The position numbers and the translations under genes are program-made. The notes below the pieces were generated by a model that saw only the letters and a program-made list of their open reading frames with translations, did no database searches and was not told the origin of the DNA. From Nemertoderma westbladi (taxonomy: Eukaryota; Animalia; Xenacoelomorpha): DNA of 64,000 nucleotides. The DNA lies in the NCBI GenBank assembly GCA_032718475.1, contig JAUCBJ010002525.1, forward strand, positions 1 to 64,000, in the 5' to 3' direction. Below, piece by piece: positions 12,328 to 64,000 of the stretch (its first letter is position 1; each line of letters begins with the position of its first letter).

Positions 12328-12367
12328 TATAAAATATACAACCAATTTACACGAAACTTACAGCGGG

Positions 12368-15433: not shown

Positions 15434-16270
15434 CTCTTTATTAATTAAATAGATAGAGTAACAATCCTGAAACTTAAACGTAAACCAGAAAATTGTGTGA
15501 CTCCCCTGTAGAGAAATATCTCAGTTTTAAAGAGTCTCTCTGGGCTCGGACTCAACGTGTGACCCCCCTGTAGTGAAAAATCTCAGTTTTAAAGAGTCTC
15601 TCTGGGCTCGGACTCAACGTGTGACCCCCCCCCCCCCCCCCCCCTGTAGAGAAATATCTCAGTTTAAAGAGTCTCTCTGGGCTCGGACTCAATGTGTGAC
15701 CCCCCTGTAGAGAAATATCTCAGTTTTAAAGAGTCTCTCTGGGCTCGGACTCATCGTGTGACCCCCCTGTAGTGAAAAATCTCAGTTTTAAAGAGTCTCT
15801 CTGGGCTCGGACTCAACAGCAAACTGTAACAGCAAACGCATTTCGAGTTTGTTGCGAAAACATGTGTGTCGAGGTAGTGTTGTCGCGTAGCCATTCGGAT
15901 AGTTGGTGGAGGAACTCCGGTTTTCCATTGCTCTTTATTAATTAAATAGATAAGAGTAACAATCCTGAAAATTAAACGTAAACCAGAAAATTAATTGTGT
16001 GACTCCCCTGTAGAGAAATATCTCAGTTTTAAAGAGTCTCTCTGGGCTCGGACTCAACGTGTGACCCCCCTGTAGAGAAATATCTCAGTTTTAAAGAGTC
16101 TCTCTGGGCTCGGACTCAACGTGTGACCCCCCCCCCCCCCCCCCCCCTGTAGAGAATTATCTCAGTTTTAAAGAGTCTCTCTGGGCTCGGACTCAACGTG
16201 TGACCCCCCTGTAGAGAAATATCTCAGTTTTAAAGAGTCTCTCTGGGCTCGGACTCAACGTGTGACCCCC
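15434..16270. repeat. Duplicated block containing a tandem repeat of about 62 bp
   Basis: Unit cccctgtagagaaatatctcagttttaaagagtctctctgggctcggactcaacgtgtga, in 5+4 copies. Each array is preceded by the same roughly 65-bp leader (15434 and 15930). Confidence 0.93.
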
Positions 16271-17457: not shown

Positions 17458-18333
17458 TATATATTTAGTTAAATACAGCAATATTAATTTAGCCTACTGG
17501 TAGTGTAATCAGGTAGGCCTATAATAGAAGCCTAGCCTATAACAAACAGACAAAGAGGCAAAAACGGACGGACTGACGGTGGACGGAGTGTATTTGTCGC
17601 CCAACTGATGCCAAACTGGTCTGTAGATATAGTAGGCTAGGCAGGTAGGTACGGCTGTACGGGCCCTGTTGAAAAGTTTTATTTCCTGCGCCGAACGCGG
17701 CGCCTGGTGCAAAAAATCTTGCGCCGGATCAGTGCGAAGCCACGCCAGGTGGGGGTGGCCCGGCAGCCGGTGCACAAAATCCTGCGCCGGCTCTGTGAAA
17801 TGCTCAGCCAGGCTGCCAGGTGTAAAAAAAGTATTAATAATTAGGCCTACCGATAATACAGTAATAATACAATAGGCAGATACCGGTAGGCCCTAATACA
17901 GTAGGCCTAATAAAAATATTTCGACGCCGGCCACCGGCTGCATCGACAGGCCGAGTGCAGCATCTCTATTACAGTATTATTGCATTATGGCCAATAGAGC
18001 ATATTATTGCAAATTATGCAATAATAACACTACACAGAAATAATACAGTAATACATAATAGACTACAGGCAACAGGACGGGTATATCTTTTGCGTAGAGG
18101 TATAGCCTACATAGAGGCTTCATGTAGGTATGTGTAGCCTACATGTAGATGCACGTGTAGGGTGAATGTAGGTAGGTGTAGTCCCATAGATATTAATGTA
18201 ATTTATGTGTCAACTTGCAGTAACGTGATACACGGTCGTCAATCAGGATGTATGGCAATAATCTCTGATCTCCACGGTACAATACGGTACATCAACATGC
18301 AGACCTGTCTGCTGTCAGACAACAGGTTTTACT

Positions 18334-20930
18334 CAAGGACTGCTATACTACAGGACTGGCACACTGAATATCCAGACCCCGCTAGCGGGGTCCATTAGTT
18401 CCCTTCTAATATGGCTCCGAAATAGATGCAAATTTGTTAAATTTTCAATTTTCTCTCACAGATAAATTGTTATTTATTCTTCTTATGTGTTTATGACGAA
18501 CCTAGCTACCTCAAACCTGCCTCGCTGCCTGCTTTAACGTTTGAGGCTGATATAATTATTGCTAAGCCAGTGATAGTCCATATACAATAATACTGTATGG
18601 TAGTAATCGTGCTCGTGTACTATGCATAATAAATTCAGACACCACCGGCACCGCCCACTACTCTCGCCACCAGCCCAGCCTAATACATTAATTAAACATC
18701 TTAGTGGGGCGAGCCACGTAGTAGTTGAAGCTTTACTGTACAGATTTCATAATGTTGACATTCTTGTGATCTGCAATTTAAGATTATAAATTTTAACACG
18801 CAAAATGAATATTAAATAACGATTAGAAAATGTATTTATTTCCAGCAGCTGCTATTTCAATCTGCAATGGTTTTCATATGTATAAATTGCCGGCAGTGTA
18901 GGTAGACACACTCGATTCAAAATAACAACAGCAATTGGCCCTTAAAAGGGGCATTTGGGTTGAGTTGTATTACAGTATGTGACATATGTCTGTAGGCATA
19001 TTGAATTATCAAAATTAATTACAATTAAATTAATAGATAGTCGAATAGTCAATCTTCACTACAGAAGATTAATGTCCTTTATCCAGACCGGTAATGCGGA
19101 GAAATTTCCTGTTGGTTCCGTGACCTTCGGAAGATCGCTTTTCAGAGCACATCATGCTGGAGCGTTTCTGCATTCCGTTTAACAGTGTGTTCGCAAGGGT
19201 GGTACATGCAACTGCGGGGGGTGCTGGTATTATATCGTACTGTACAGCGATGGTTTTGACCACCTGCGCTAATTGACGGTAGCATAGTATGGTTCCATCA
19301 GGTACCGAATCTACCCATGTCGCTGACACCATTACCCACCAAACCAACTCATGTGATGGCAGCTGTAATCCACCCCTAGATAGCCGCCATGTTTGTGGAA
19401 AGAGGTAATTGCTTCCTTGATACACGTATGGGCAAATAGGGATGTCATGGAATGAACTGGAATCATCTGCACCATCACTGAAGGTCCCCCGTATAAAATC
19501 TTAACCATCAAGCAGAGGACTGAGTTGGCCAACTCCGATGGGTCATCCTTAGCATAGCCAAACACTCCATGTCCTTGATACAATAGTTTGGGAACCACCT
19601 TTACTTCGTCTGTTATAAGAATCGCCTTTGGGGATTCGGCAGCAGGCGTACCAGCTGGTAAGCTGTTCTTTGCTTTACGAATGGCCATTTCTATGAGCAA
19701 ATCACTGGTGACTCCCTGTTTTAGCGATCTTATCTTCTTTTCGCATGGAAGAATAGCAATCTGCCGCAGTATACTATATGGCAGACGCGGGTAGCCCTGA
19801 ACAGCCAGTAGATAATCCGACTGTGAGTAACACTTTGAACCGCTACAAGGCAGCTGCAACTGATGGGATATAAACTCCAGCTGGGTTTTGTATTTATAAT
19901 CAGAACTGGAGGCGATAGCGTCATCAATCAACTCTCGGGCTTTCAGCAGCAAGTTCTCGGTCGTTCCTACCACGCTTCGTTTAACTGTGACAATAACTTC
20001 CAACAGCTAGGACCAGCGAATGAGCTGCGCATTAGGAGCGAGGCAATAGTTAAGCGATATACGTTTGTTAGTAGGATTAAACGCAGTAACATAGATATCA
20101 CTGCAGAGAAGCTGCCTCGTTTCAATACATATTTTGCCAGCGTAGGAATCGCTGACAAAAACATACAGCATAATGAAATCAGCAGTTATCTTAACAAATA
20201 TATCGACGGATTCAACATGAACATCGTTGCGAATCCACGTTTCGACATCGCCACGGAAGATATCGAACCCGCCAATTCCCGGCGGTTTAGCGATTGAACC
20301 TGTCGCTCTTCGATCGGTGGCTCCGCTCGTAACTTCCCTGGTGGCGGAGGAACACAGGATGCTGGAACCCCAGGAAAGAAGAATGGCAGGATAGTCGGCC
20401 GCAACGCTCCTCCGGGAACCTTCCGATGAGGGATATCCTGCGGGAATCCTGGCCAATGTCGGATACAAATAACAGCATCGGCGCTATACTTTATGGGCGA
20501 TCCATCAGGAGCAGACCGCTTTGGAAGAGTAGCAATCCATTGCTGACGTTCCACGCCGAATGGGAGCTTGAAAGTTCGTACAGTTCTTCCCTCGTAGTTG
20601 TCATTGCATCCATACACACAACAGTGTTTCCCCATTCCAGTTTATAACCCGAATAATCTGATATTACTGTGATGTGTGTTAAAACTACTGTAGCTACCGG
20701 TACTAAGCTGCAGCCTGTCAGCCTGTAGTTATGTTAAACCTTTTTAAACATTACTAAATAATAATACATAAATATAAATCCACTGATTTAATAAAGTACA
20801 TACCGGTAAGTAATTGGGTTGATTACACAGTTGTACAGCCAGACAGCAGTACTGGAATTCTGCAACTAATGGACCCCGCTAGCGGGGTCTGGATATTCAG
20901 TGTGCCAGTCCTGTAGTATAGCAGTCCTTG
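18334..20930 (-). mobile_element. P-element superfamily transposon nested in the MULE
   Basis: Perfect TIRs of about 67 bp (CAAGGACTGC...GCAGTCCTTG). 8-bp TSD GTTTTACT at 18326-18333 and 20931-20938. Internal THAP-transposase remnants. Confidence 0.93.
19069..20635 (-). pseudogene. Frameshifted, internally deleted THAP/P-element transposase
   Basis: THAP (CCVYGC..FKLP..W..ICIRHW) at 20635-20186. ILITDEVKV..ANSVLCLMV at 20003-19332. C-terminal RGGLQLPS motif at 19425-19069. The three pieces are in different frames. Confidence 0.85.
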
Positions 20931-22551: not shown

Positions 22552-25500
22552 TGTTAGAATATCATAAACTGTTAGTCTGCCGGACTCGGTTTCTTACATT
22601 TTGAGAGAGATATAAGGTGGAGGGAAATTCAAACTTACTTTTAGTTAGAGGTAGCACTGTGTGACATACCGGCACTGCTGCACTGCAGCAATACTGCAAT
22701 AGGTCTAGTGCATTTATTGACAGGCCTAAATCGTGTATACATTATACAATGATATGTTAGAATATCCTATCTTAACATGGCGCAGTGTGTACTCCAACCT
22801 ACACTGGAGTAAAATAATTCCCAGTGGCAGAATATAACCGAATACAGGAATATAGATCCCTAATCCATCCATCTTATCCGGAATTTTGAAAATAACTTGC
22901 CCTTACAATGGGAGAGAAACCAGATAATTATTTGGACTTAAATGAAGAGGATCTACCACAACTCGATATACAAGATCTTCGACATTACTGTACCCAGGCT
23001 GGCATAAACTTTACAAGTAAAACAGCTGCTAAAACTCTTCAGAAGAAGTTATCCGGAGCATTAAACTTTGAGGATGGAAAGGGCGAAACTGCCTCATGGG
23101 ACACGTTTGCTAAAATTTTAGCAGATGAACGGCGGGCTGCTGAGGATCGTTCCGCTAGAGAGCGTGCCGCCGCCGAATTACAACGAGCCGAGGATCGCGC
23201 CGTCACAGCCGCGGAGCTACGGCTTGTAATAGAACGTGCTGACGAGGACAGACGTGTCGCCGCTGCGCAGTTCGCTCAATTAATAGCAACACTCCATCCT
23301 GCCGCTGGCGGTGGAGTGGCACCGGGGGTTCCACCTCTGGCTCCCGGAGATGTACCTGAGCATCAAAATCGACGTCGTCCTATCGACATTAAGAATCTCG
23401 AAAAGATAAATAATAACGTCGACTTCCAAACCTTCATCCGATGGCGGAAAGCTTGGGATGTTCACGCACACCGGCAACAGATATCGCTTTTCCCTCGCGA
23501 CGAGCAAGTATATGCCTTGATAGAGGCGTTGGGAATGGATATCCAACAAACTATTAAAGTTACGCTTCGCCTGGATATCGACTCAGGTGACACAACAACT
23601 GAGACGTTGTTGGACGCGTTTCAGGCCCATTTACGTTCTAAACGGAGTCTTGCCGTTGATGCCATAAAGTTTAGAGAACGTAAACAGGGTCCTAACGAAT
23701 CCTTTGATTCACTCCGAGTTTCACTCGAGGAACTAGCTGACAGCGCTGAGCTGTGCGACCATTGTCGTAATCGTCAGTTAGTTACACAGATCATCGTGGG
23801 TGTTCGAACCTCTGAGACCCGATCCAAACTCCTCGAAATTCTACCTGAACCGACACTTAATGACTGTGTTCGAATAGCACAGATGGTTGAAGCAAGTGAG
23901 AAGAACGAGGTAATTATAGGTAGCGGCAAACCTATAACACAAATCTCGAACTATCAACGGGAACGTGGACGATCACCAACCCGCGAAAATCGAGATAATC
24001 GGAATCCTTCGGGAAATCGAAATAATTCCAGCAATCCGAACCAAAGTTCCGGCAAATGTGGTATGTGCGGTCGAAAGACACACCCGGGTGGCAGAACTGA
24101 ATGTCCAGCCCGAAACGCCACATGCGACGGATGCGGAAAACTTGGACACTATAGACCGGTATGCCGTTCTAAACATAAAACCAAGGAACACAAGGTTTCC
24201 ACTATCCGTCCAACTCAAAACTCTGTCAATCGCATTGTAATCTCTAACACAATATGCGAGCTAGAATATGTACCAGTCGACATATTTCGCACAGATAATA
24301 ATAATAAAGTTGGACATATTAAACAGGCCCTGCCCGACAGTGGCGCTGTTATAACCATTTTGGGCGAGAAACAATTCCACAAGATGGGCGGTAAAGGATC
24401 CGACCTTCTACCTGCCGGCAGGGAAGTGTTTTCCGCAGCAAATGGTTCTCCGATATATATATCGGGTCGTCTTCCCGTTCGAATAATTCATGAGGGCGAC
24501 ATCGTTGAGACCGAGATATACATATCTCGAGAATCCACTGGATTTATTATGTCTCTCCGACTATCTCAAGAGTTTGGACTCATTCCTTGGAATTTTCCAA
24601 ACAAAATCCATCCAGATATTTCCACTGTCAAAGCATCTCAGAATATGGAGAATTTGCAGCAGGAAATTCTGACAGAATTTGCAGATGTCTTTGATGACGA
24701 CTCGGTTCCATTATCTATGATGGACGGTCCACCGATGCACATAACACTTAAGGAAAATGCGGTGCCTTACCATGTAAATGGCGCCCGACCTATACCTTTT
24801 GCGTTGCGCGAAGAGGTTAAACTACTGCTCGACGATTACGAACGTCGTCAGATCATTGCTAAAGTTACTGAGCCTACAGATTGGGCTCACCCTTTAACGG
24901 TGTGTAGAAAACCAAATGGGAAACTCCGTTTGTGCGTGGACCTTCGACACCTTAATAACCAGGTTAAACGTCCACAGTATCCCACACCCAATCCACGCAG
25001 TGTAATCGCTAATATTCCGGCTTCCTCGAAATGTTTCACAGTATTCGATGCAGCACATGGATATTGGCAGATTCCCCTGGACTCAGAAAGCCAACTTCTC
25101 ACGACATTCACCACACCATGGGGGCGCTACGTACATCGACGTAGTGTAATGGGCCTCATCTCGAGTGGGGATGAATATAATCGTCGTGGAGACAACGCAT
25201 TGCAGGGTATTCCCAACGTGGTCAAGTTGGTTGATGACCTACTGATCTACGGAGACAATGTGGAAGAACATATCTCCCAGATTAGGGTTGTACTGCAACG
25301 CTGTCGTGAGGAAAAATTGTGTCTTCACCCAGAGAAGATACAATTCGCTAAGTCGGAAGTTAAATATGCCGGATTTCTAGTAGGAGAATCGGGAATAAAA
25401 CCAGATCCAATGAAACTTCGAGCGATCTCAAGTTTTCCATGTCCAACTAACATAACTGACTTAAGAAGTTTTGTCGGGTTAGTCGAACAATTGGCCCCTT

Positions 25501-27691
25501 TCTCACATGACTTGGCATCACATTTAACTCCACTACGTCCCCTATTAAGTGCGAGGTCTCCATTTATATGGACTCCAGACCACGAACGCGCATTCATTGC
25601 GACAAAGGCCGGACTGATTTCGCCGCCTATTCTAGCATCATTCGACCCCACTAAGGAAACTCAGCTCCAAACTGATGCGTCCCGGAAACATGGCCTTGGG
25701 TACGCCTTACTCCAACTCCATGGTGAAGATTGGCGTCTCGTTGAATGTGGTAGTCGGTTTGTGACCGAAACAGAATCCCGCTATGCCATAGTCGAGTTGG
25801 AAATGTTAGCGGTAGTCTGGGCAACCCAGAAGTGTAGATTGTACTTACTGGGGTTGCATAATTACACCTTAGTGGTGGACCACCAACCACTCGTGACGAT
25901 CATTGATCGTTACACCATCGATGCAACGGAGAACACACGCCTCCAGCGACTAAAGACCAAACTGTCTCCATATGTGTTTACCACAATCTGGAGAAAGGGG
26001 AAAGACCATCGAATACCAGATGCTCTATCCCGCGCCCCTGTGGATGACCCCACTCCAGAGGACATTGTCGATGACGGTGATATGTCATATTACATCCGGG
26101 CGGTTACTCAACAAACCATCTCGGATATTGAAGCCTCTTTTGACGACTCCATTCTAGAATCCCTGAATCAATGTGTTCTGAACGACCCTGATTACATGGC
26201 ATTACACAAAGCCATACAATCCGGTTTCCCCCTGGACACTCGGACACTATCTGGAGTTCGACCATTCTGGTCAATTCGTCATGAACTCACGACTGACCAT
26301 GATCTCATTCTATATGGTCATCGCATAGTCATCCCGCTTGAAGAACGACGGAAAATTCTTCAACGCTTACATTCGTCTCACCAAGGTGTTGAAAAGACGC
26401 TGCGTCGGGCACGTCAAACTGTTTACTGGCCAGGATTGACCAGTGACATTCGGAACACTACTGGGTCGTGCCGTGAATGTTTGGCTTATCAACCAAGCCA
26501 TCCCAAAGAGCCAATGCTCTACGACCCCCCGGCTACACGGCCCTTCGAAGAAATTTCGTGCGATTTCTTCTCCCTAAACGGTCATGATTACCTCACTGTA
26601 GCGGATCGCTACTCCGGGTGGCCAGAAGTCCTCTCTTACAGCACCCCTCCCACTGCGGCGAAAACTATCGAGAGTGTCCGCAGCGTGTTCATCCGCTTTG
26701 GTGTCCCTACACGTTTACGATCCGATGGCGGCCCTCAATTTACAGCCACCGTATTCGAGGATTTCCTCAATGATTGGGGCGTCAAACCGATCGTTTCTTC
26801 ACCGGGATACGCGCAAAGTAACGGTCACGCCGAATCAGCGGTGAAAGCTATCAAATCCCTCCTCGCAAAGACTGGAGGAAACATCAAGAGTGAGAGATTC
26901 GGGGAGGGGCTACTCGAATTACGGAATGCGCCACGCATGCATGGGAAATCGCCAGCCGAAATTCTGTTCGGACATCCTATCCGTACACGAATCCCCATCC
27001 ACAGCAGTGCGTTCCATGGGAGCCATCAGTCTACTCGGACTGAAATGGATATAAAGGCCCATGACCTAAAATCCAAAACTGCCAACTATTATAATAAGGG
27101 CGCCCACAAACTCAAACCACTTCAGATTGGGGAGAAGGTCCTTATCCAGAATGCTTCTACAAAGCGTTGGGACCGATCCGGTGTCGTTGTGGAGATCAAT
27201 CCACATCGTTCTTACAGGGTCCGGACCCCATCGGGCCGCGCACTACGGCGCAACCGAAGATTCCTTATTAAGGACACTGCGGCAGACCCTATTATACAGA
27301 AAGAACAACCCTATCAACGGAAACATGTAACATGGAAACCGACGTTAGTGGATGATATACCTGTCGTTCATAGATATCCACAACGTAATCGACGCTCTCC
27401 AGACAGACTACATTCCTCTACAAACTGAAAGCTTTCATATCATATACTAAAAGCTCGAAGGGGGGTGTTAGAATATCATAAACTGTTAGTCTGCCGGACT
27501 CGGTTTCTTACATTTTGAGAGAGATATAAGGTGGAGGGAAATTCAAACTTACTTTTAGTTAGAGGTAGCACTGTGTGACATACCGGCACTGTTGCACTGC
27601 AGCAATACTGCAATAGGTCTAGTGCATTTATATACAGGCCTAAATCGTGTATACATTATACAATGATATGTTAGAATATCCTATCTTAACA
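22552..27691 (+). mobile_element. Full-length Ty3/Gypsy LTR retrotransposon (Mag-like)
   Basis: 226-bp TG..CA LTRs at 22552-22777 and 27466-27691, with 3 differences seen. PBS TGGCGCAGT at 22778. PPT ending GAAGGGGGG at 27465. Flanks AAGAG/AAGAT form a 5-bp TSD with one mismatch. Confidence 0.96.
22908..27428 (+). CDS. Gag-Pol polyprotein, single uninterrupted ORF, 1506 aa
   Basis: Two Cys-His knuckles ([10 protein letters not shown]; [14 protein letters not shown]), protease DSGA, RT (RLCVDLR, LVDD), RNase H (QTDAS, ELEMLAV), and integrase H-H-C-C plus D-D-E (SDGGPQF, SNGHAE). Domain order is Gypsy-type. Confidence 0.97.
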
Positions 27692-29187: not shown

Positions 29188-29576
29188 TTCTTATTACTAT
29201 TTGTATAGAAAATGTTCCAGAACATGTTAGCTATTCATTTTTTTAAAAATTATGTTCAAGAACAAATATTTTTTGTTCTAGAACATTTTTTAGAAAAAAA
29301 TCTGGATTCTGTTTAAAACGCAAGGAATCGTTCTAAAACGTGTTTAAAATCAATAAAAAAAAATGTGAAAAAAAATATTGTGAATAAAATTTTTTGAAAA
29401 AATTTTTTTTATTGATTTTAAACACGATTTAGAACGATTCCATGCGTTTTAATTAGAATCCAGATTTTTTTCTAAAAAATGTTCTAGAACAAAAAATATT
29501 TGTTCTAGAACATAACTTTTTTAAAAATGAATAGCTAACATGTTCTGGAACATTTTCTATACAAATAGTAATAAGT
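29188..29576. repeat. Long imperfect palindrome (about 175-bp arms) within a GTTCTAGAAC-rich foldback-like region (about 28200-30430)
   Basis: 29188-about 29365 is the reverse complement of about 29400-29576. The motif TGTTCTAGAACA recurs many times nearby. Confidence 0.85.
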
Positions 29577-31619: not shown

Positions 31620-33120
31620 TCAGCATCGAAAACACGTACAACGCAATAATGAAATTATAACTAGGAACTGCTTTACATCGTTTATATCGTTGTAATAAAG
31701 ATGACAGTTATTATATTGTTTGCACCGAATGTATTCACTAGTTGGATGATCAGTGCGATAAAGGAGTTTCCATACATACTTCACACGGACTATCTTACAC
31801 CATATATCAGGTAGTAAAAGTCCGCGCGAAATTGGTAGTTTGTGCCTGTCTGTGTTGAATAGTGTACCTACTGCCCCTATCAACAACATTGCGGCCCAGA
31901 AATCTTCTATAATTTTACATGATCGACGTGAGGCCCAGACTGGTGAAGCATACACAATTTTAGTAAGAATAACTGAATGTATAATTTTTGTCACCGCAGC
32001 AATACTAATTCCATTCCTAGAAGGAGCACAGAAGCTGCTATCTAGCTTAGAGGAGGCTGCATCTAGTGTTGGCCTCTTTGTGAATAGCACAAAGACCAAC
32101 ATTCTGACAGTAAACATGGATTCAGATCAGCAGAAAATTGATCGGGATAACATTCAATCGCTGGGTGGACTGGTAAGTCATGTGAACGACTTCTGCTACC
32201 TTGGATCATGGGTTCGGAGGTCTGCTGAAGATCTCCGAATTCGCAAAGGGAAAGCCTGGTCCGCCATCCACAAGCTATCCAGGATCTGGAAGAGCTCTGA
32301 CATCTCATGCTCTTTAAAGGTCCGCCTTTTCCGTGCAGCAGTGGAGCCTGTGCTGCTCTATGGCAGCCCATGCTGGGCTCTAACTTCTGAAGACACCAGG
32401 TCCTTGGATGGCACATACACCAGGATGCTTCGCCGGGTGCACAACATAGCATATGATGCACACATAAGCAATGAGGTGTTATATAAATATGGTAACATCT
32501 CATTGCCAAGACCTAGCATCACCCTGCAGAAACGCCGCCTAATGCTTGCTGGGCACTGTTTCCGCCGGCAGGATCAACCTGTACACAACCTTGTGCTGTG
32601 GCAGCCTGCTGGCGAGATTAGACGTGGTGGACAGCCAATGACTTTCCTCAAACGCCTGCTCAAGGACACAGGACTTGAGAACAGGAATGAATTAGGAAAT
32701 TGTATGGCTGACCGCAAGATCTGGGGGCGCTATGTTTCTGGGGCCGCCGGCACTGCACCCTAGTGCAAGCCGATCATCATCATCAATTCCATTCCTGGGG
32801 TTTACGAAACGTGATACATTTTTCCACAGCTGCCAAAAATTCATCATAACATTCTTTAGATGAATATCAAAGTCATTTTGGAATCAAATGAACACCTAAT
32901 ATCTTTGTTTTGTAGTCTGAGAAAAGTTAGCATGATCCACAGTTGTTCCCATAACTAAAACATCAGTTTTCTCAGCATTTATCTTTAGGCGCCATCGTTG
33001 ACACCATTAAAAGACTTCATCACAGTCCGTCTGGAGACTTTGTATACCCAGACTGATACTGTAGTATTTATCATCGTGAGTTGGGCAAGTTTTGTAACGA
33101 CTGTTATCATCTGCATACTT
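31620..33120 (-). pseudogene. Degenerate non-LTR retrotransposon RT remnant, interrupted by an RTE insertion
   Basis: Minus strand reads YADD...LQTDC..WCQRWRLKINAEKT (about 33117-32960) and IVYASPVW (about 31950), with stops and frameshifts. Confidence 0.75.
32019..32784 (+). mobile_element. 5'-truncated RTE-clade LINE
   Basis: RT C-terminus (FCYLGS, KVRLFRAAVEPVLLYGS, RLMLAGHCFR). (CAT)n tail. 12-bp TSD AATTCCATTCCT at 32007-32018 and 32785-32796. Confidence 0.92.
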
Positions 33121-33820
33121 AAATTTACTCATCATTTCTTTTATTTAAAAAATAAGCAAATAAATCCATAGATAGTACTTTTCCTTGGCCAATACAAATT
33201 GTCATTTCTTTGGAAATTACCCATAGACTTTGGAAATTACATCACTCTTGTGATCTACACTAGGGGAATTTAACCGGGGATGGATTTGAACAGAGTGAAA
33301 ATTGTTAAATGCATAAATTCACTGGAGGGGGGTTAAATACACTAGGGAAAATACACTCCGGGAGTGAGAATACACTACGGAATTTTATCCGGGGAGTGAT
33401 TTTGCATGGAGAGTGAAAAGTATATGTTACACCGGTAGTTAAAATGTTTGATAAATTAGTTTTATGGTCGTTTCCAAGGCCAGTTTTAAAGTTTGATGGA
33501 TTCAAAGGTGTTTTCCGTCTGTCTGTCGAGAACCGAACCAAAAAGAAATTGAAGCATTAGTGGTCAAGATTATTCAACAATTACTCTATATGCCTCAAAA
33601 TAAACAGATTACATTACAGCATTATTGGTGTTTGGCTTCTCGACTTTACTTGGTCAAAACCATGTAAATGGCACAAAATAACCACAAACACCAATTATGT
33701 TTTTATTTTGTTTAAAAAGTTAATTTAATTGAACAAACATGAGGTGGGTTTGAAATGTGCATTATTCGGCTTAATATTGGTATTATTATATAGCATTCCC
33801 GGAGTGGGATTTCAACTTAC

Positions 33821-34005
33821 CTGGATGGTTGCAGTGGTGCTGACCCCTTGAACGAGGCTGAATGAGAGGCGAACAGAGGCGGAGAAGGCGAACCAGATAA
33901 TTCGTCCAAGTCGTCATCCGATAAATTATCATCCGAAGAATTTAGTTGGGGTTCTTTAGTTGTCGTTAACGGTATTCCATTTGCAACGGGTAACGGCACT
34001 GCCAT
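33821..34005 (-). CDS. Probable first coding exon of an unidentified host gene
   Basis: ATG in ataATGG context. Acidic, Ser/Pro-rich peptide ending at a consensus donor CAG|GTAAGT (33820). Downstream exons were not identified. Confidence 0.55.
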
Positions 34006-36725
34006 TATCGGTATTTATTTGACCGGTCTTCCGTCAGTAACTTAATGCAGTAATAATGCAGACAGCTGATGTATTACAGAAGTTCTTTAAGGCAACTTAA
34101 AATCCAGAAGTGTTGTTAGTCTGTATTCAGGTATTAATATCGCTCAACAACTGAACTAACTAATTTTATGTTAAGTTAGGGCTATGTTACCATGGGCCTC
34201 ACAGTGACGACATTTGACATCTGTTTATCAGTAAAACTGTAATACAGGTATGTGTGATAATATTAATTTACAGATTTAATGGCAGAATGGTAAACCGAAC
34301 CAATAATATGTATTGTAATAAATGATATTAGGCTATTGCTGCATTGCCAATACAGTAATAATGTAATAACAACACTCATAAATAGGATAATAAATAGAAA
34401 ATAGGCCACTAATTATTGTGAATGGCAGGTATATAATTGCCAATTGGCAGTCAAATAGGCCTACAGTCTATAACACCATACATGCGAATATAAGTACTGT
34501 AGTATGGTAAATAAGGCCACAGCGCACAGCAGAAACCTACTCCTTAACTACCAAAATATTTACTAGGGCCAGGTACTGCTGTACTGTCAGACTATTTTTA
34601 TTCGCAGCTAGGCCTAAATAAGAGTTGCCCTTGTGCAGTGCAGTAAGTATTGCTACCGGTAGCTATAAACTCCTTTTCTTATGAATAAATTATTTTCATT
34701 GTCATCTGTCTGCCGAATTAAAGTTTGAAGTTTATAGATGTTGCTAAGATACAAACCTACCGCCCTACCACTCACATCCCTTGCTTTTTGCTTGGATTTA
34801 TTGGTCAGGAGAATTCTTAAAGTTTTCCTTTACTAATTACCCCACCAGGCCAGCAGCAGCTGGGACTTTATTTAATACAATTTTAATAAGCACCGAGACT
34901 GACACAAACGAAATACCGGTACCGGTACATTAATTGATAAATTTTAATTAAAATTGTGAATAATTATTAATTTCATTTAATTATTTATTTATAAAAGCAA
35001 ACAGCGAAACAGGGAAGCTTTCACTATTTGTACAGTGTACCAGGCGCAATGTGTATTCTGGATAGTTTTTATTATTATAATGTAGTAACAGCTAGCTACA
35101 TATGATTGCGAATATGTGGGGCGAGCCACGCAGTCGGGGCGAGATTTAGCGCACAATTATAATTAGTAAATAGGGCGAAATTTAATATGTCTGTATGTCC
35201 GTCTGTAATGAAAAAATCATTCGTAAATAACTATGGAAGATTTTACCCATTTTCAACCAAATATTGTAGGGCATACTAGAGAAAAAGTTCCAATATTTTT
35301 GAAAGTTACTGGCAAATAGCTCTCGAACGTTTGACTCCAGATCAAATCGAACTTGTTTCGAACTTGGTCATGTTCGCGTGATCTGCTGCGCGACGCCCCA
35401 CGAGCGTGTACAGTAAGTACTACACTACTTACACTGTTACACTACATGGTACTGTTCGCCGGTGATTATAAACAAACGGTTATACTGTAGTTATTATAAA
35501 CTCGTCTTTCTCAATTGTTCAATGTTTTTTTTATTCTCTAATGACGTTAATTAGGAGCCCGCTCGACAGGCGGGATACTTACTGTAAGAATCTCAGGGAT
35601 ACATTACTGTAAAAATCTCAGGATATACACTGACTGACTGACTGACTGATAATTATCTAGGTTCAGGCACTTCCTGCCTGGCGATTTTGTTGAAATTTTA
35701 CAAGTAAATTGCTTTGGTGGTTCATAATCGCGTTACAAAATATCAGATTAATTCAATGTGTGGTATTCGATATATTTCGTTTTTTGAAATTATTTTGTCG
35801 CGAAATTAAAAGCAATGGTAAAGTAACAACTCCTGCCTGAGCTGCTGCAGCAGCTAGCTGTGTAGGAATTCCATCAAGGCAGAATTTCTTGACCACACCC
35901 CTCCTGCTGCTGGCTGCTGTCTGAGTCTACACTTCCTTATCAGCTCTCAGGTATAGACAGAAAGTAGTTGAGTTGTCAATAAACAAAATAAAATATACAA
36001 CTGCAGTAGGATTATATTATTATTATTCCACGAATCACTGGGCTGATTATTTTGTATAGGATATATGTAGAATGTTCTTAAAAATAATATTCTTATTTTT
36101 TTTATTACATATGATTATCATCATTTTTTAGCTGAAGCATTAATAGTGTAAATTAATTTAATTATATTTTAATACCATTACTACGTTGGCATACTGTAAG
36201 ATAAGTTTTAACATTTCTTACAAATAGTGGTGCGAGCATAAATCAAATCACGCAAATTTAAAAGAACCGGGTGTGTTGTCATAGCAAAGTTTCATTTTTT
36301 ATTATGTGGGACGAGCCACAAAGTCAGCTAGCCCCACGCCTTATAGTTTAGACAATTGTTTAGTTTACTTACTGCTGACCGACAAGGTTGATTTCTAATA
36401 GTCTTGTAAATAGGATACTTCCCCCGGGCTCCTTCCAGCCAGCTTGCTGGCTTTCTAGTGTATATTGTATGTTTATTTATTCGTGTAATTTCGCACTACC
36501 AAATCGGCAGGACGATCTACAGTATTGTCCAACTTTTTATATCGCAGTGCGAAATTATTCCTCAGTATTTCCCTACGCCATACGTTTGCGATATATAATA
36601 ATAAATTAATTGTAGCAGTGGGGTGGGTGAGGGTGAATTAAATATATTATGTACCGTACAGTAATAGAACAATAAGATAATGCTCTCCATAGCGAAAAAT
36701 ATCAACCGACCCTATTGGGACTCGA

Positions 36726-36774
36726 ACCCGGTACCTACTGTAGGTTTCAAACTTCCGGTTGTCTTCAGCCGGGT
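36726..36774 (-). ncRNA. Minimal type I hammerhead ribozyme motif inside a tRNA-like unit (about 36705-36805)
   Basis: ACCCGG-CUGAAGA-CAAC CGGAA GUUU-GAAA-CCUA CAG UAGG-UA-CCGGGU. Complete core, perfect 6-bp stem I, GUA cleavage triplet. Flanked by A-box TAGCTCAGTTG and B-box GGTTCGAGTCC. Confidence 0.72.
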
Positions 36775-37099
36775 GTGTGTGTCCTAAGACAACTGAGCTA
36801 CCAGAACGTGTGAAGAATTTTATTCGCTATAGAGTGGATATTATACTTTGGCTTTTAACTAATCACTCAAAGGAAAGTACAGTACAACGTTATTAATTAA
36901 CAGCCTGGTATACGGGGTAAAACAGTGGTTTCTACAACACTGTATAGTTATTCTTTGAGGCATGGTTGCCATTACTGGCAGAGCACGGGCATGTTGCACT
37001 TTCCTTTGAATGATTAGTTAAAGGTCAAAATATGATATCCACTCCATAGCGAATAACTTATTCTCCGTCCTGGTAGCTCAGTTGTCTTAGCACACACAC

Positions 37100-37143
37100 A
37101 ACCAGCTGATGATAACCGGTAGTTTGAAATCTAGGTACCGGAT
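37100..37143 (+). ncRNA. Second, more degenerate hammerhead motif inside a tRNA-like unit (about 37068-37160)
   Basis: AACCAG-CUGAUGA-UAAC CGGUA GUUU-GAAA-UCUAGG-UA-CCGGAU. A-box TAGCTCAGTTG upstream, B-box GATTCGAGCCC downstream. Stem I is mismatched. Confidence 0.6.
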
Positions 37144-37858
37144 TCGAGCCCCAGTAGAGTTTGCGATATATGTTTAGTATGACACAGCTTCATTCAAAAT
37201 ATTAGCCATTGTATATTGGTCGCGCTTTTAGGCCTTTAACAGTTTAACCTGCTAATTTATATGTCTATTAATACCTGACAGCCCAATACAGATGAACTCA
37301 GCCGAAGCCAGTCTAGCGCAGCGAATGACCCACCGGAGGTGGGAGACTGGATTCGATAGCACAGAGAGCCGTAGGACACTTTGTATTATTCGATTGATCT
37401 TTACTATATAATCTCCAAAAACTATGCTTATTTTCAGTTAAATAGTAAAAGTTCCTTTTAGGTGCTGCGCTATAAATACTACGCAGAGATATGACTTATA
37501 GTAATACTAATTACAACGGGCGGGCATGAGATAACGCAAATGTTTACATCCTATAGTATTTATTGAACGTTCACACGCTAGCACGGACGGACAATCCCTG
37601 CAAACAGTGAACGTTAAACTAACGTTAGATTTGTGTCTAAGTTTCGTTAAAATTTAACATTGCCAAAACTAACAATAATCAAACGTTAATAACCGTTACA
37701 CTTTAGTTGAAAATCAACATTTAGTAATTGAACTATAACCATACGTTCAATCAACGTTATAGTTTAGTTAAAAAATAACGATTTAAAACTTAGTCTAATC
37801 AAACGTTACATTGCCGTTGATTTTCAACGTATCAACAATTTAAATATTTGAACGTTAA

Positions 37859-39294
37859 CCCTATTATCACTGGGGTGTTTTGACCATTAGCACCACTGGG
37901 GGGGGGGGGGGGGGGGCGATTCGGCCCACCCACTATATTTTTGTAGTCGTCCAATGAAATCCTACAAAATTTGGGCTGTTGGTGAAACAACTATAGATGA
38001 ACACAACCAAACCTTAAAAAGTTAAAATTTCATAAGCAGGGACTCATAATTTTGATGAAAAATAAAAGTAGTCCCAGGACAAAATTACAAAATTTTTCGT
38101 TTTCTAAAAACTAATAGTGTGGCAGTATTGGCTAGATTTAGTAGGTTTTTCAAGACGCTGAATCGAATGTGATTATATTCCACTTCCAAAAATTGAAGTG
38201 GATGCTATTTTTCGTGCACCTAAGAAGTGGGCGTGGCACTTCAAATTTTGAAAAATTAGATATTCAGAAAATGCCCCTAATTTTTTTATTTCAACGCATC
38301 TTTATGGGTTTTACAGACCGCTGAATCGATTGAAAGTAATATAGAAGCCTGAAGACTTAGAAGTTAGCCATTTTTTGAAATCAAAACTTTAGTGTTTTTT
38401 CCGAATAAAGTAATTTTGAAAATTTGAAGTGCCACGCCCTAATTTTGGTGCACCGAAAATTACGTACACAAAGGATTTGAGGCTTCTATATTACTTTCAA
38501 TCGATTCAGCGCTCCAGAAAACCTATAAAATTAATTTGAAATCAAAACTTTAGTGAATTTTCCGAATCTCGTATTTTTCAAAATTTGAAGTGCCACGCCC
38601 TAATTTTGGTGCACCAAAAATGGCGAACCACTAAGTCTTCAGGCTTCTATATTACTTTCAATCGATTCAGCGCTCCAGAAAACCTATAAAAATGCTTTGC
38701 AAATCAAAACTTTAGTGTATTTTCCGAATCTCGTATTTTTCAAAATTTGAAGTGCCACGCCCTAATTTTGGTGCACCAAAAATGGCGAACCACTAAGTCT
38801 TCAGGCTTCTATACTACTTTTAATCGATTCAGCGCTCCAGAAAACCAATAAAAATGCTTCGAAATCAGAACTTTAGTAAATTTTCCGAATAAAGTAATTT
38901 TGAAATTTTAAAGTGCCACGCCCTAAATTTGGTGCTCCAAAAATGACGTACCACTACACTTACATACTTGTATAGAGCATTAGAGTGATCCAAACCAATA
39001 AAAATAAATAAAAATAGCCCAAACATAAATAATTACTAAATCACGAATGACTTTGTAAAATTCGAAAATTTCAAAAAATTTGGTGCTGGAGACCAAATTT
39101 TGAGGTGGCACCCACATCGAAAAGTAGAAATCCAATTGCAACGGCGTTTTTTGCAAAATATGCGGCATTAAATTTGGCTAATTCTCACAAAAAATTGGGC
39201 CGGTACGTAATGTGGTTGCATAGTTACAGCAACTAAAAACTAGGAAGGGGCCGATTCCCCCCCCCCCCCCCCCCCCCCCCCAGTGGTAATAGGG
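37859..39294. mobile_element. piggyBac-type non-autonomous element (TTAA TSD)
   Basis: TTAA|CCCTATTATCACTGGGG ... CCCCAGTGGTAATAGGG|TTAA. Internal tandem repeats of about 170-180 bp (38400-38945) plus an inverted copy. Confidence 0.88.
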
Positions 39295-39427
39295 TTAAAT
39301 GAACGTTACACTTTAGTTGGGAATTCACAGAAAACATGTCATGTACTCCCTAAATTGTGATTGGATGAATAACGCGTACAATTTCTAATCTACTAAAATT
39401 AGCAGTGCATTCCCAGCAATAGACATC

Positions 39428-40085
39428 GTGGGGACTTCGCGCAGCACGTAGTCGGCAAGCCTTGGCATACGGTTCATATAGAGCAAATGGGGCATGTCTA
39501 GTTTGAACCCCATATCCCATGCTATAAATGTATTCATTCGATATACAATCATATGTTAATCCGCTAGGTGGTGTCAAATTGTTATTCTGCAATTTTGTAC
39601 TTACCAGTGCAGCACTGTACAGCAGTACCGTACCGGTAGGCCTATGAGTCTCTTCTGAGGCCTCTTCTGAGTGACCTTCTGAGTCTCTAGCGGATCCCCA
39701 ATTAAATGTCTTAACTTTTCAATTTCGTAAAAGATAGACTTCATGATTCTCTACAGGCCACCAAAATTTCAGCTCAGGAAAATGAGGCCTTCCCGAGAAA
39801 TTTAACATTTTCTAAAAACCACAAAATCTGTCGTAGCCTCGTAGCTGACGTCAGACTGCATGATTTTTCACCAAACTTTACAAACTTTCTAAACTTTCTC
39901 TCTACTACTTGCCTACTAAGTTTGGTTCAATTCCGAACCAGCGATGCCGAGAAATTCGCGTTCAAACATTTACCAGACAGACGGACGGACAGACAGACAG
40001 ACGGACAGACAGACAGACGGACATGCCCCATTTACCCTATATGAACCGTATGCCAAGGCTCGCCGACTACGTGTCTCGCCCCACA
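39428..40085 (+). mobile_element. DINE/Helentron-like non-autonomous element
   Basis: 5' motif gtggggacttcgcgcagcacg, (GACA/GACG)n microsatellite at about 39975-40022, and 3' ggctcgcc..ctcgccccaca motif. The end motifs recur at about 18704, 35116, 36306, 43729, 44405, 44561, 46136 and 56131. Confidence 0.55.
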
Positions 40086-40898
40086 TACATTATTGCTGCT
40101 GAAGTTTAATATTCAATAACAGCCAACAAACAGTTATAAGATATTTTTTACTTCATAGTGACAGGATTTTTATTTCTGAATAATATTGTTTCAACATTTT
40201 TCATGTATGATATTTCTTTATTTTTGCAAGAGTAGGGCTAAGTAATGGTGGTTTAATTCGGTGGTTTAATATATAACCAAATGAAATTGCTTGTAAATTT
40301 TCCATTGGGGTCTTCCCGCCAATATATCGCACCGTATATGTAGGCCTAGTTCATTTTTTAAAATATTGGCAAAAAATATTTTACTTCATATCTATCCAGC
40401 TCATACTGTAACTACAGTAACCAAGTTGCAATGGTTCCTCTGAGTTTGCATTGTATACCAGTATACGTCTAGACAGTGAGAAACCCCACACCCCAAAAGC
40501 AATCTATTGTTGATTCTTCTCAATGTAAGATGCTTTCTGAAGATTCTCCTGCTGGACCTCTGCCCCTCCTAAAAAGTCCCTGTAAAATCCCGGTTACATC
40601 AGATGCAATGAGGATCCTTATGTTCTCCACAGATTCACCCATAGTCTAAGGTTAAAAAACCTATAAGTTTCCAAGCTTAGAGTATTAGGCTTACTGTGAT
40701 AGCTTTAGGGTAGTTGTATTGAATAAACAAGGCAATGGCAGAGAGACTACCAGTATTCACTGGATCAAGTAAAAGAAGCAAGCGTCGGAGATTGACAAAG
40801 GAGTTACACAGTCTTTAGAATTCGAATCTGTATCTGATTATTTTGATTCCCCAGCTCCGTCTAATGTCGCTTCGAGTATTTCTAATCAAAACTTATGC

Positions 40899-41810
40899 AT
40901 GGATTTGCCAATAACGCAATCTTCTCATGAACATGCTCAATATCAACGCGATAGTGGTGATGCTCTTATTACAAATTGTGATCAACCCCAATCTATCAGT
41001 GATTCGGAATCTGATCTTTCTGTCCTTTTGGTGGATGATCAGGCGAAAGAGGTATTTTGTAATCTTGAGCCAGATTCATATGAAGACGAAGCTGGACTTT
41101 GTTCAATTGAGGATATTGAACCCCCAAACACTTCATTTAAACGAATTAAATTCGTTTAAATGAAGTCCAAGTTATCAAATGCTGTTGCGCAAATGTTTTC
41201 TAAGACTGGGCGTCGGAGCACGAAAGAATCCTTTGAAGATTCGTATCCCCGTGTGTTGGCCTGTTTTAAACGTAAGAAAATTTTACTCATAATATATTAA
41301 TATGATTAATTAATACTCATATTAATATTATTATAATATAATATTATAATATTAATAATTGCAGAAAAAAATGCAGTTACAAACTCGTGTTTCAGTGTCG
41401 TTTGTTTAGATTTTCTGTTTTGGGAAAGAAACAGGTTACTCAAGGATAGGATAAAATTCTATACGAAACAATTTATCGTGATACGTCCAGAATGTGATTT
41501 TGAGTAAAGCTCACATATTGTTGTTATACAGTAAGCATTTTTAATGTGCTAATTTATTCAATTGAAAATTATAAGAAATTAGTAGATTTTTTAACAATAC
41601 ATTAAAATTTGATATACGATACGAATTACGAAAATAAATGTCGCATCGAATCATTATATCCTGTTTAGAGAGCGACAAATGTTATAATCATTTTACTGGC
41701 TCATAGGTGCGCTGCTGAAAGATGGACGATTCCAGGAAACGGCTGTAGATGGGGCGATTTCTATATTTTTCAGGCAGGCGCCTAATAGATACGGAGGAGC
41801 TAACTATTAA
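40899..41810 (+). pseudogene. Spliced DUF4806/BEN-like transposon accessory gene remnant
   Basis: ORF 40899-41159 continues in frame across one TAA into MKSKLSNAVAQMFSKTGRRSTKESF...ACFK. A GT-AG intron at 41272-41706 joins it in phase to ALLKDGRFQETAVDGAISIFFRQAPNRYGGANY*. Confidence 0.6.
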
Positions 41811-51908: not shown

Positions 51909-52646
51909 TCACCCCGAGTACCGGTAGACCAAGAATTCGTTAGACACCGTGTACTTGGCGGCAAACTGACGACCCTCTGGCGTTGGATCAGAGAAAGCGA
52001 TCTCCTGAGGACCCAGACAGGTCCCGTAGACAAAGTTTCTGCGGAGACAGTCGACCAGACGTGTGGCCACGCCAGTGCGTCGGTCGCAGCGCGCCACCCA
52101 GATTTGGGCTATTCCAGCCCGAGCCGGCGTCGCCACATCAGAGCAGAAGCAGGCCGAACCGGGGGACGAAACAGCAACGGCTGGTTTAGAAATAGGTGAT
52201 AGTGGGGTTGCAGGGGGGAGGGGGGTTGTCGTATTATTAGTGAGGGTGAGGGGGGTTAGGGGATGCGGTGCTGAGTCCATATTACATGTGGGTGTGGCGT
52301 TTAGGTCTTGTGATAGAAGTACATGAGATTTAAAGTTTGAGCCTTGAATTAGCGAGACTTGTGTATCTTGGGTTGACTCTTGATATTGCGATCCTTGGGT
52401 TGGTTGGGTTGATTCTTCAGACTGAGATAATTGGGTTGAATTCAGCCCAATCGAAGACGGTGTGTCTGGAAGCGTTTCTAAATTGTGTTCGTAGACGATT
52501 TTTCGGTTATCGGGACCCTGTGCATTGCGACGTTGTTCAATATTGCTTCCCTTAGACGCATTGATCTCGATGTTGGAGACTGCTGTAGTTTCCGATACAG
52601 TTGTAGTTGTTCCGGATTCCGAAGTCAAGTTCAACACACGAAAACC
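51909..52646 (-). CDS. ESCO2: Terminal exon of ESCO/Eco1 cohesin N-acetyltransferase
   Basis: Branch point CTAAC plus pyrimidine tract and CAG| at 52647. Exon begins GFRVL and ends with the ESCO motifs CFCS..PARAGIAQIWV..RRTGVATRLVDCLR.NF.YG..IAFSDPTPEGRQFA.KY..FLVY. ESCO1 versus ESCO2 cannot be resolved. Confidence 0.9.
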   Translation of the reverse strand, partial: GFRVLNLTSESGTTTTVSETTAVSNIEINASKGSNIEQRRNAQGPDNRKIVYEHNLETLPDTPSSIGLNSTQLSQSEESTQPTQGSQYQESTQDTQVSLIQGSNFKSHVLLSQDLNATPTCNMDSAPHPLTPLTLTNNTTTPLPPATPLSPISKPAVAVSSPGSACFCSDVATPARAGIAQIWVARCDRRTGVATRLVDCLRRNFVYGTCLGPQEIAFSDPTPEGRQFAAKYTVSNEFLVYRYSG

Positions 52647-53298
52647 CTGCGCAAAAATAAGTTAGAAGTTACATTTTTGTATAGAAAACCTATAATAGAT
52701 TCTCACAAAGTATTTTGTGTTGCAGGTGGTAAGATCCGCAATTTAGCATCGCATATTCGCTAAACATCCATTGGTTATACATAGCCTTCCCAGACTATAA
52801 TGCCAATGGGAGAGCTAGTTTAAGATAGGTTTATACATAGGTTTAAGATACACATCTAGTTTAAGATAGGTTTACATATACATAAGTTTGCATATAAAAC
52901 ACCATTTTCGTTAGCCAAAGTTGTATAAAAATTCCCACAATTTATCAAAAGTTATATTAAAAGCTGTATAAAAATTATTTAAAGATAAATAAAATATCGT
53001 AAAAGTTATATCAAAATTGCAAAACGTTATATAAAATTCCAAAGTGATGACTCAGAATGCTTCAGTCGTCGTCGACCTAGGTCAAGAGGGATCAACGATT
53101 TTTCACATATCAATAAACTTTAATTAGATATAAATGCATAATTAATAATGTGTAACTGTTAATAAATTTCACTAAATAAACTTAGGTACATAAAAAAAAA
53201 CTTAGGTCGTAACGCTGCAAAGTGCTACTTTGCACACAATGATGTAAATAGTTATTGAGAATTTTGATAAAACTTTTGCTAACGTAAATTGTGGTTAA

Positions 53299-56473: not shown

Positions 56474-56662
56474 TGTATTTATTTTGATAACTACCTCTGT
56501 ACTGCAGTACTGGTACCGGTACCTCAGAATTACTAGAGCCTACCTCAGTCAGTCAGTCTGTACCTACTGACCTACAACTACAACCTAAGCCTGTAAGCTG
56601 AACAACAGCTCAGACACCGGTACCGGTAGTTTCTCGCACCAAAAACGGTAAATCCCAACAAT

Positions 56663-63761: not shown

Positions 63762-63830
63762 GGCCCCAGTGGCTCAGTTGGCAGAGCGTGGGACTTGGAA
63801 TCTCTAGGTACCGAGTTCAATCCCCCATTC
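63762..63830 (+). ncRNA. tRNA-derived SINE head or tRNA pseudogene
   Basis: A-box TGGCTCAGTTGG, D-arm AGAGC, B-box GAGTTCAATCC. Acceptor stem not intact. Shares ctaggtaccg with the hammerhead-bearing units. Confidence 0.6.
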
Positions 63831-64000
63831 CGGTGAATGTAGCGAGATTCAACTATTCTGACAGAGTGGATGAGTTTTAGGAGACTTGGCAAGTTTTTAA
63901 GAATGCGTTTAAGGCGGAAGGCGGGAGAGAAACTGCAGAGACTCAAAGAGACTTCAAAGAGACAACACCAAACTGTTAAAAGGGTAAAGGAAAAAGAGTT

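Follow-up and report, generated by a model that had tools for sequence, protein, structure and literature searches.

Repeats that combine a hammerhead ribozyme with a Pol III promoter are already known. In the accessible portions of the schistosome literature, Sm-alpha and Sj-alpha appear as high-copy, tRNA-related Pol III repeats with a type I hammerhead, and cleavage parts the promoter of Sm-alpha from the remainder, as is predicted for the repeat described here (PMC6765202, PMC2770079, PMC8490949). Sm-alpha is described with its promoter ahead of the ribozyme (PMC6765202), a canonical stem II, and a tandem arrangement, whereas the hammerhead of the present repeat is placed between the two boxes and overlaps the B box. 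Some overlap with a B box may exist in Sm-alpha too, since the bases past its cut site look loosely B-box-like by eye; in one decayed Sm-alpha fragment a stretch resembling a B box precedes the core, also judged by eye.

Penelope elements offer a second comparison. According to the excerpts consulted, the hammerheads in their pseudo-LTRs share with this repeat the type I form, a short palindromic stem III, and dispersed, 5′-truncated copies (PMC4209133, PMC8557442). Dimer action is described for them as well, and they occur in close opposite-strand pairs (PMC4209133, in part); a hallmark of the group is an inverted, 5′-truncated copy abutting the 5′ end (PMC8557442, in part), and the pair in our window has this structure. 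Penelope stem II is 6 to 8 bp long (7 to 8 in minimal hammerheads) with G10.1-C11.1, in contrast to 3 bp after a U·U pair here (PMC4209133, passages seen). A tRNA promoter is not described in the sections consulted on pseudo-LTRs, whereas this repeat has A and B boxes (PMC4209133, PMC8557442), and a possible 13-bp duplication with a 64-nt extension does not match the 30- to 40-nt tail described for Penelope in the excerpts. Metazoan non-LTR retrozymes, as portrayed in the accessible text, are likewise short non-coding repeats with a type I hammerhead in animal genomes, but they form head-to-tail tandems of 150 to 450 bp and are said to be promoterless, while ours have both boxes and appear dispersed or inverted (PMC7229834, PMC7761336). 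Finally, tRNA-derived SINEs (SINE2) also have A and B boxes, a tRNA-like head, high copy number, and 5′ truncation; unlike them, this repeat has a box gap about 23 nt wider, a ribozyme in its head, sequence continuing upstream, and no poly(A) or simple-repeat tail.

We analyzed a window of 64,000 nucleotides from Nemertoderma westbladi (contig JAUCBJ010002525.1), in which two inverted copies of an abundant repeat each carry a hammerhead motif between their Pol III boxes (Table 1). The best matches of KIF27, at 53-59%, place the host among animals. No description of a hammerhead in this position was found in the openly readable literature.

Table 1. Coordinates of the features discussed, in window positions
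Feature	Position	Strand	Basis or remark
First arm, 5′-truncated copy	36661..36881	-	Alignment of arms; contig ends; family 3′ end at 36661
Second arm	36882..37158	+	Inverted, head-to-head with first; 82% alike over common part; upstream family sequence 36882-36994
Type I hammerhead motif	36726..36774	-	Direct sequence reading, descriptor search, folding; predicted cut between 36732 and 36731
Pol III A box	36790..36800	-	Sequence; letters identical to those in real tRNAs
Pol III B box and T-arm remnant	36718..36728	-	Overlaps stem I 3′ strand; T-arm match to tRNA model
T5 run, predicted Pol III terminator	36695..36699	-	Only run of at least 4 T in the arm
12-bp helix, upstream arm	36823..36834	-	Would enclose tRNA/ribozyme unit in long transcripts
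12-bp helix, downstream arm	36685..36696	-	Partner of 36823..36834
Second hammerhead motif	37100..37143	+	Core intact, stem I broken, stem III short
A box, second arm	37074..37084	+	Sequence
B box, second arm	37140..37151	+	Sequence; one change
13-bp direct repeat, possible left target-site duplication	36584..36596	+	64 nt past family 3′ end
13-bp direct repeat, possible right target-site duplication	37159..37171	+	Family matches stop here (pieces end at 37157)
Ribozyme-free tRNA-like element, normal box spacing	63763..63835	+	Own tRNA model, 28.1 bits, E 2e-6

The hammerhead motif and the promoter around it

The original prediction described a complete type I hammerhead on the minus strand, and our re-reading of the letters agrees with it: the copy has stem I, CUGAAGA, stem II behind a C·U pair, GAAA, stem III, and GUA in that order, with stems of 6, 3, and 5 bp around the core, open at stem I. 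The predicted cut falls between the A and B boxes, where the ribozyme had been placed. It is the sole match to the hammerhead descriptor in the window, and the chance expectation, taken from 150 simulated order-2 Markov windows, was 0 matches. Pattern searches gave 0 matches in viral contigs and in prokaryote genomes; in metagenomes a pattern of core plus B box gave 41 chance matches, which served as a control (0 of 41 had a stem I of at least 4 bp or a palindromic loop III); blastn against phages gave matches only near E 9 among the best 15 of 61. These searches say little about the range of the family, because few animals are present in those collections. We consider the sequence motif in the minus copy confirmed, and self-cleavage a prediction from it.

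The Rfam hammerhead models did not recover the motif, with no match at E ≤ 1 across the window or at E ≤ 10 across 36640-37200. The G10.1-C11.1 pair is absent, replaced by C·U in the minus copy and U·U in the family majority; the original prediction had pointed out this unusual closure of stem II, and U10.1·U11.1 is a natural hammerhead variant on record (PMC3088659, in the part available). In folding calculations, stems I and III form together with P 0.5-0.6 when the A-box side is left out and with P 0.002-0.005 when it is included, and the complete three-stem fold is scarce even in the isolated 49-mer (P 0.006). The predicted competitors pair loop II with the stem I 5′ strand or with the A-box side. 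The model predicts that the ribozyme would be off in a short Pol III RNA.

The A and B boxes lie 56-61 nt apart where real tRNAs mostly have 33-34 nt, a spacing about 23 nt wider. The B box overlaps the 3′ strand of stem I. The suggestion that the tRNA T-arm and the ribozyme exclude one another is weak as the main switch, since the T-stem has mostly decayed to a 3-bp GGG/CCC remnant that rarely forms in folding (P ~0.001); the T-arm matches our tRNA model at 10.8 bits (E 0.44). We set this competition aside as the main control. The T5 run, which we take to be a Pol III terminator, would stop transcription 34 nt short of the family 3′ end.

The plus-strand copy keeps the core letters that had been claimed for it. 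Its ribozyme is nevertheless probably dead, judging from the sequence, because only four of the six stem I positions pair, a mismatch adjoins the core, and very little is left of stem III, where position 15.2 is U. The family majority letters at 37101 and 37104 restore this stem I.

A large, 5′-truncated family with inverted joints

We examined the family in public DNA contigs from four runs (X1-X4, representing at most three samples), in which contig depth is not true copy number; very roughly, the family has thousands of copies. In the 40 of 114 variant rows listed, its majority letters give a CUGAUGA core, a perfect stem I, a U·U pair where stem II begins, and a stem III that is short and palindromic. 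A large repeat family whose majority letters keep the core and stem I is supported, and the assignment to a plain SINE or tandem retrozyme in the original prediction is not supported. U at N7 accounts for 95-98% of depth in X1-X3 and U at 10.1 for about 100%. Five bases are missing at 36736 in 61-68% of depth in all four runs, which produces the palindromic stem III; the minus copy, with its longer stem III, departs from this norm, and the family form would be of the dimer type. The stem I-restoring letters reach 56-100% of depth at 37104 and, in X1-X3, 47-92% at 37101, and the single common stem I variant (22-38% in X1-X3) retains G·U pairing. In X4, two of the family majority letters stand at only 36-41%. 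Among the 40 of 114 variant rows listed, none affects a fixed core base and none is a two-sided compensatory stem change.

Depth declines steeply toward the 5′ side: X2 has 258k over the tail and 109k over the B box, and the value falls further to 59k within the core and 15k by the A box. With the arms summed, the drop at the tRNA 5′ end is about 10-fold in X1 and X2 and about 2- to 2.5-fold in X3 and X4 (range 2- to 11-fold). At the other end, 20-29 contigs per run stop at 36661 in X1-X3, and their AT-rich flanks are unrelated (agreement 0.53-0.57); no poly(A) or simple-repeat tail was seen at 36661-36694 or at loose contig ends. The stretch 36640-36658 has zero cover in three runs.

The two arms meet at 36881/36882 and stay alike for 70 nt beyond the tRNA head, and repeat depth also persists upstream. 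One contig fuses 36915-36989 (plus) straight onto 36878 (minus), so 36915-36989 is upstream element sequence. Beyond the A box the repeat runs on upstream for 190 nt or more. One 1915-nt contig holds 1679 further bases upstream. The head-to-head, inverted, 5′-truncated type accounts for 10 of the 15 joints listed (of 28), with two more from another table; these assignments were made by eye, and a record confirmed the orientation for one of four opposite-strand rows. There was no head-to-tail joint among the same 15 and no tandem array of the ribozyme repeat unit in the window. Breakpoints seemed to cluster at the cut site, with 6 of 12 head-to-head joints at 36727-36736 (P 0.006, depth-weighted null), but after removal of joints beside the 5-base indel the count was 3 of 9 (P 0.10), and we do not count it as evidence. 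Direct repeats of at least 13 bp, like the one bracketing the pair, arose by chance in 10 of 2903 random pairs and in 23 of 1433 equally spaced pairs.

Mobilization and rival explanations

The head-to-head inverted copies, the steep 5′ truncation, and the missing poly(A) point to Penelope-type mobilization over a plain SINE or a tandem retrozyme. We give a probability of roughly 50% to the reading that the locus is an inverted pair of an abundant repeat with a hammerhead between its A and B boxes, likely copied in the Penelope manner and likely cut only by paired copies. The boxes would be usable by Pol III, yielding an RNA of about 115 nt that ends at T5 and whose predicted fold leaves the ribozyme inactive. 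As this RNA would lack the last 34 nt, the most abundant part in the genome, the copied RNA would be longer: the mobile form would be a transcript carrying two repeats, as in Penelope pseudo-LTR tandems. Two palindromic stems III would pair and permit a cut after GUA, so that the product would begin at the B box, and a Penelope RT/GIY-YIG enzyme would copy from the 3′ end, leaving truncated and inverted insertions. None of the 56 frames in 33000-41000 matched Pfam, RT and GIY-YIG domains included, and the upstream part has no ORF; the repeat may be a non-autonomous element or may form the terminal repeat of a coding Penelope element.

The precedent of Sm-alpha, which joins Pol III transcription to an active type I hammerhead and spreads from tandems (PMC6765202, as far as seen), makes a similar SINE or non-LTR retrozyme, the reading of the original prediction, conceivable here, with Pol III tandems cut to monomers and circularized, the circle rejoining the split promoter. 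The ~10-fold depth drop in X1 and X2 would fit, as if many copies began at the tRNA 5′ end, but the far smaller drop in X3 and X4, the lack of head-to-tail joints among those listed and of a tandem in the window, the unrelated 3′ flanks, and a T5 that would halt Pol III within the unit make this unlikely. Mobilization by a LINE, with twin priming and a 13-bp target duplication around a SINE-like element whose hammerhead trims upstream read-through RNA, seems more doubtful still. The direct repeat brackets the pair, LINE fragments in the window include possible RTE or CR1 partners, and 5′ truncation is typical of LINE priming; however, one monomer template could not have given rise to two arms that have a stretch in common, and the 3′ end lacks poly(A) or a simple repeat. 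In addition, most of the 5′ ribozymes linked to LINEs belong to the HDV type, and a SINE with an internal ribozyme would be expected to become truncated by it (PMC5786205, in the portion available).

A tRNA-derived repeat whose insertion merely mimics a hammerhead, or holds one long dead, would show no cleavage, and to this we assign a similarly small chance. Real tRNAs provide parts for free: the variable loop ends in GUC in 101 of 109, the anticodon loop opens with CU in 81 of 109, and stem I-like pairing of at least 4 bp is possible in 5 of 109. The weak stem II, the disfavored active fold, and the blank Rfam result are consistent with such mimicry. On the other side, CUGANGA occurs between the boxes in none of 127 panel tRNAs bearing the same boxes, GAAA, stem II, and a palindromic stem III are also required in register, and the family majority letters suit a ribozyme better than either window copy. 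The lack of CUGANGA in the tRNA panel, together with U as the majority at N7 in three of four runs, also led us to reject CUGAAGA as a leftover tRNA-Phe anticodon loop.

Possible tRNA ancestry and significance

The tRNA likeness of the family head is piecewise only. ARAGORN called 0 genes, and our own model, built from 36 phage and prokaryote tRNAs, recovers the T-arm alone; a whole-cloverleaf fit was dropped. The 3′ half of the ribozyme matches the ribozyme-free tRNA-like element in the same window, possibly a stand-in for the ancestral tRNA head, and judging from this alignment the hammerhead was likely built partly from tRNA sequence. A bolder proposal, which we hold only tentatively and think rather improbable, is that the hammerhead is active and originated de novo within a promoter derived from a tRNA. 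The stem I 5′ strand and CUGAUGA would have come from an addition of about 23 bases, and GAAA, stem III, the GUA cut site, and the stem I 3′ strand would have been fashioned from what had been the anticodon arm, variable loop, and T-stem of the tRNA; the short Pol III RNA, folded off by itself, could then partner the long transposing RNA and activate cleavage in trans.

The many genomic hammerheads may descend from a single ancestor or may have several independent origins. Since a ribozyme-free, tRNA-like relative from this genome aligns with the 3′ half of the motif, single versus repeated origin becomes testable here, and the proposed origin, if true, would offer an example from nature in which the descent of a ribozyme from a tRNA can be traced. 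Without cleavage, this is an ordinary repeat family. With it, the same 50 bases would lie inside the promoter at the DNA level and act as a ribozyme once transcribed, tying Pol III transcription to Penelope-type mobilization.

Two hammerhead motifs in one inverted insertion

Judged by its sequence, the window is animal DNA: it holds an intronless KIF27-like frame whose best matches (53-59%) are to many animals, the closest relative among the matches listed standing at 59%. The window also holds remains of Gypsy, LINE and THAP transposons. The minus copy and the plus copy, hammerhead-like motifs between tRNA-type A and B boxes, are the arms of one head-to-head inverted insertion and are 82% alike where shared.

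The minus-strand hammerhead of the original prediction agrees with the sequence: a 6-bp stem I, CUGAAGA, GAAA and GUA are all there, and the motif does lie between the two boxes. Stem II has 3 bp preceded by a C·U pair, stem III has 5 bp, and the predicted cleavage site falls between 36732 and 36731. The plus copy keeps the core letters, as had been claimed, but pairs at just 4 of 6 positions in stem I. A hammerhead descriptor matched the window once, at the minus copy, versus 0 matches in 150 simulated windows (order-2 Markov), and a looser scan added one weak AT-rich match at 46979. The proposed search with Rfam hammerhead models gave no match in the window (E ≤ 1) or in 36640-37200 (E ≤ 10). 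None of 41 metagenome matches to a core-plus-B-box pattern had a stem I of at least 4 bp or a palindromic loop III.

In folding models of the natural minus-copy sequence, which leave out tertiary contacts and Mg2+, stems I and III form at P 0.5-0.6 without the A-box side and at P 0.002-0.005 with it, because loop II then binds either the 5' end or the 5' strand of stem I. The full three-stem fold is rare throughout (P 0.008 at best). In long transcripts, the unit would lie inside a modelled 12-bp helix between 36823-36834 and 36685-36696. The predicted Pol III RNA would end at a lone T5 run, making it ~115 nt long and 34 nt short of the family 3' end.

Features of the insertion and of the rest of the window
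Feature	Position	Strand	Basis or remark
A box, minus copy	36800-36790	-	sequence
B box, minus copy	36728-36718	-	sequence; overlaps stem I 3' strand
Lone T5 run	36699-36695	-	predicted Pol III terminator
First arm of inverted insertion	36661-36881	-	arm alignment
Second arm of inverted insertion	36882-37158	+	arm alignment
Ribozyme-free tRNA-like element	63763-63835		28.1 bits, below Rfam threshold; shares ribozyme 3' half
Minisatellite	4974-8277		28-bp unit, ~118 copies; adjoins 43-bp array 4162-4877
KIF27-like kinesin	8515-12357	-	1280 codons, single open frame, no introns
THAP-domain transposase remains, two	16270-20641	-	noted with inverted repeats 18079-18181/22236-22338 and 18334-18400/20864-20930
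Gypsy-type LTR retrotransposon frame	22896-27428	+	1510 codons; RT, RNase H, integrase domains
Near-perfect palindrome	29190-29575		190-nt arms, 93% complementary, 6-nt spacer
ESCO1/2 acetyltransferase domain	in frame 51909-52661	-
Cold-shock-domain protein	56630-57154	+	glycine-rich tail, single frame

Abundance and majority letters of the family

Four public DNA runs (X1-X4, from at most three samples) supplied the contigs, which were aligned to 36640-37200 at 80% likeness. In X2, contig depth falls from 258k (tail) through 109k (B box), 59k (core) and 15k (A box) to 0.4k further upstream. Set beside the median of ~24 for long single contigs, this suggests ~10,000 tails, ~4,500 B boxes, ~2,400 cores and ~600 A boxes (6,900, 3,000, 1,000 and 100 in X3), figures that are orders of magnitude because contig depth is no true copy number. 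The family ends sharply at 36661, with unrelated AT-rich flanks beyond and no poly(A) at this end. Upstream in the element, the stretch 36944-36981, which contains a perfect 5-bp hairpin, has ~50 times its neighbours' depth in all large runs and is probably also part of a commoner repeat. At one locus (X1-X3; joint 36728/37090), the end of the A-box region is seemingly fused directly to the B box, with the entire ribozyme missing.

The family's majority letters, the commonest base per position by depth, match a ribozyme more closely than the letters of either copy in the window do. Across X1-X4, N7 is U in 97, 98, 95 and 36% of depth and position 10.1 is U in 100, 100, 100 and 41%; a U10.1·U11.1 opening of stem II is present in natural hammerheads (PMC3088659). 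A 5-base deletion at 36736 (61-68%) gives a short palindromic stem III. Both plus-copy stem I mismatches revert in the family, at 37104 in 56-100% and at 37101 in 47, 92, 57 and 0% (X1-X4), and a stem I C-to-U variant (38, 38, 22 and 0%) keeps pairing as G·U. Among the 40 variant rows listed of 114, none affects a fixed core base and no two-sided compensatory change in stems was seen.

Relation to tRNA

For comparison, we used a panel of at least 127 tRNA-type matches from phages and prokaryotes that share these boxes (123 are tRNAs by ARAGORN). Among those listed, the boxes lie 29-45 nt apart, mostly 33-34, and 0 of 127 has CUGANGA between them; the gaps of the window copies are 56 and 61 nt.

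The ribozyme-free tRNA-like element is probably a pseudogene or the head of another repeat. Directly ahead of the B box it has 9 and 11 bases in common with the two copies, no unique panel spacer (n = 119) shares more than 3 bases there, and the window matches a 17-base pattern of this stretch 3 times versus 0.07 expected. The palindrome, GUA and the start of the stem I 3' strand are therefore probably of tRNA origin. The remainder can be aligned in two ways. One ~23-nt insertion after the D-arm would give the ribozyme 5' half, the anticodon loop becoming GAAA (z 4.4; 3 of 119 panel tRNAs reach as high). Otherwise, CCGG-CU...AA-CCGG would be an expanded anticodon arm, as in tRNA-Met (best match of 119, z 3.2-4.6; chance of the loop II pattern ~0.002). 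What counts against either alignment is that a tRNA covariance model picks up just the T-arm, that the panel contains no animal tRNAs, and that the ribozyme-free element could itself descend from the family. We regard an origin of the hammerhead from tRNA parts as rather doubtful.

Mobilisation of the repeat

The most likely reading, at a probability of about 0.5, is that a Penelope-type enzyme copied the repeat from a long two-repeat RNA. Published accounts describe an inverted, 5'-truncated copy right at the 5' end of Penelope-like elements (PMC8557442), and close opposite-strand pairs, a palindromic stem III and dimer action for Penelope hammerheads (PMC4209133), whose stem II, as there described, is far longer than the 3 bp of the family. 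By our reading, 10 of the 15 joints listed (of 28) are head-to-head, as are 2 more tabulated separately. Membership among Penelope elements is unproven. Points against this reading are the short stem II, the failure to find a Penelope ORF near the pair (0 of 56 frames in 33000-41000; Pfam) and the 13-bp repeat around the pair which, together with its 64-nt extension, could instead be a LINE-type target duplication. Apparent breakpoint clustering at the cut site was lost once joints beside the 5-base indel were removed.

The repeat resembles Sm-alpha in that both combine a type I hammerhead with promoter boxes for Pol III (PMC6765202, PMC2770079, PMC8490949). In Sm-alpha the ribozyme is described after the promoter, whereas that of the family lies between the boxes. 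None of the 15 joints listed of 28 is head-to-tail. We consider a tandem retrozyme like Sm-alpha an unlikely explanation. Slightly lower we put a SINE mobilised by a LINE, for which the 13-bp repeat could be a target duplication but against which the 3' end without poly(A) counts. On a par with it is an inactive hammerhead mimic, with the Rfam result and the rare fold in its favour and the majority letters and the lack of CUGANGA in the panel tRNAs against it. Assigning the family to Sm-alpha, retrozymes or plain SINEs was rejected, as their defining features fail. Primary Sm-alpha papers excepted, the literature searched yielded no description of a hammerhead between A and B boxes (further literature: PMC10886601, PMC7761336, PMC7229834, PMC6155905, PMC5786205).

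Beyond the DNA anatomy, we infer every step of the mechanism. Under copying by a Penelope-type enzyme, the template would be a long RNA carrying two repeats, in which the palindromic stem III of one repeat would base-pair with that of the other, leading to a cut after GUA. Such cleavage would split the promoter at the RNA level; in the short Pol III transcript, the ribozyme would be kept off.
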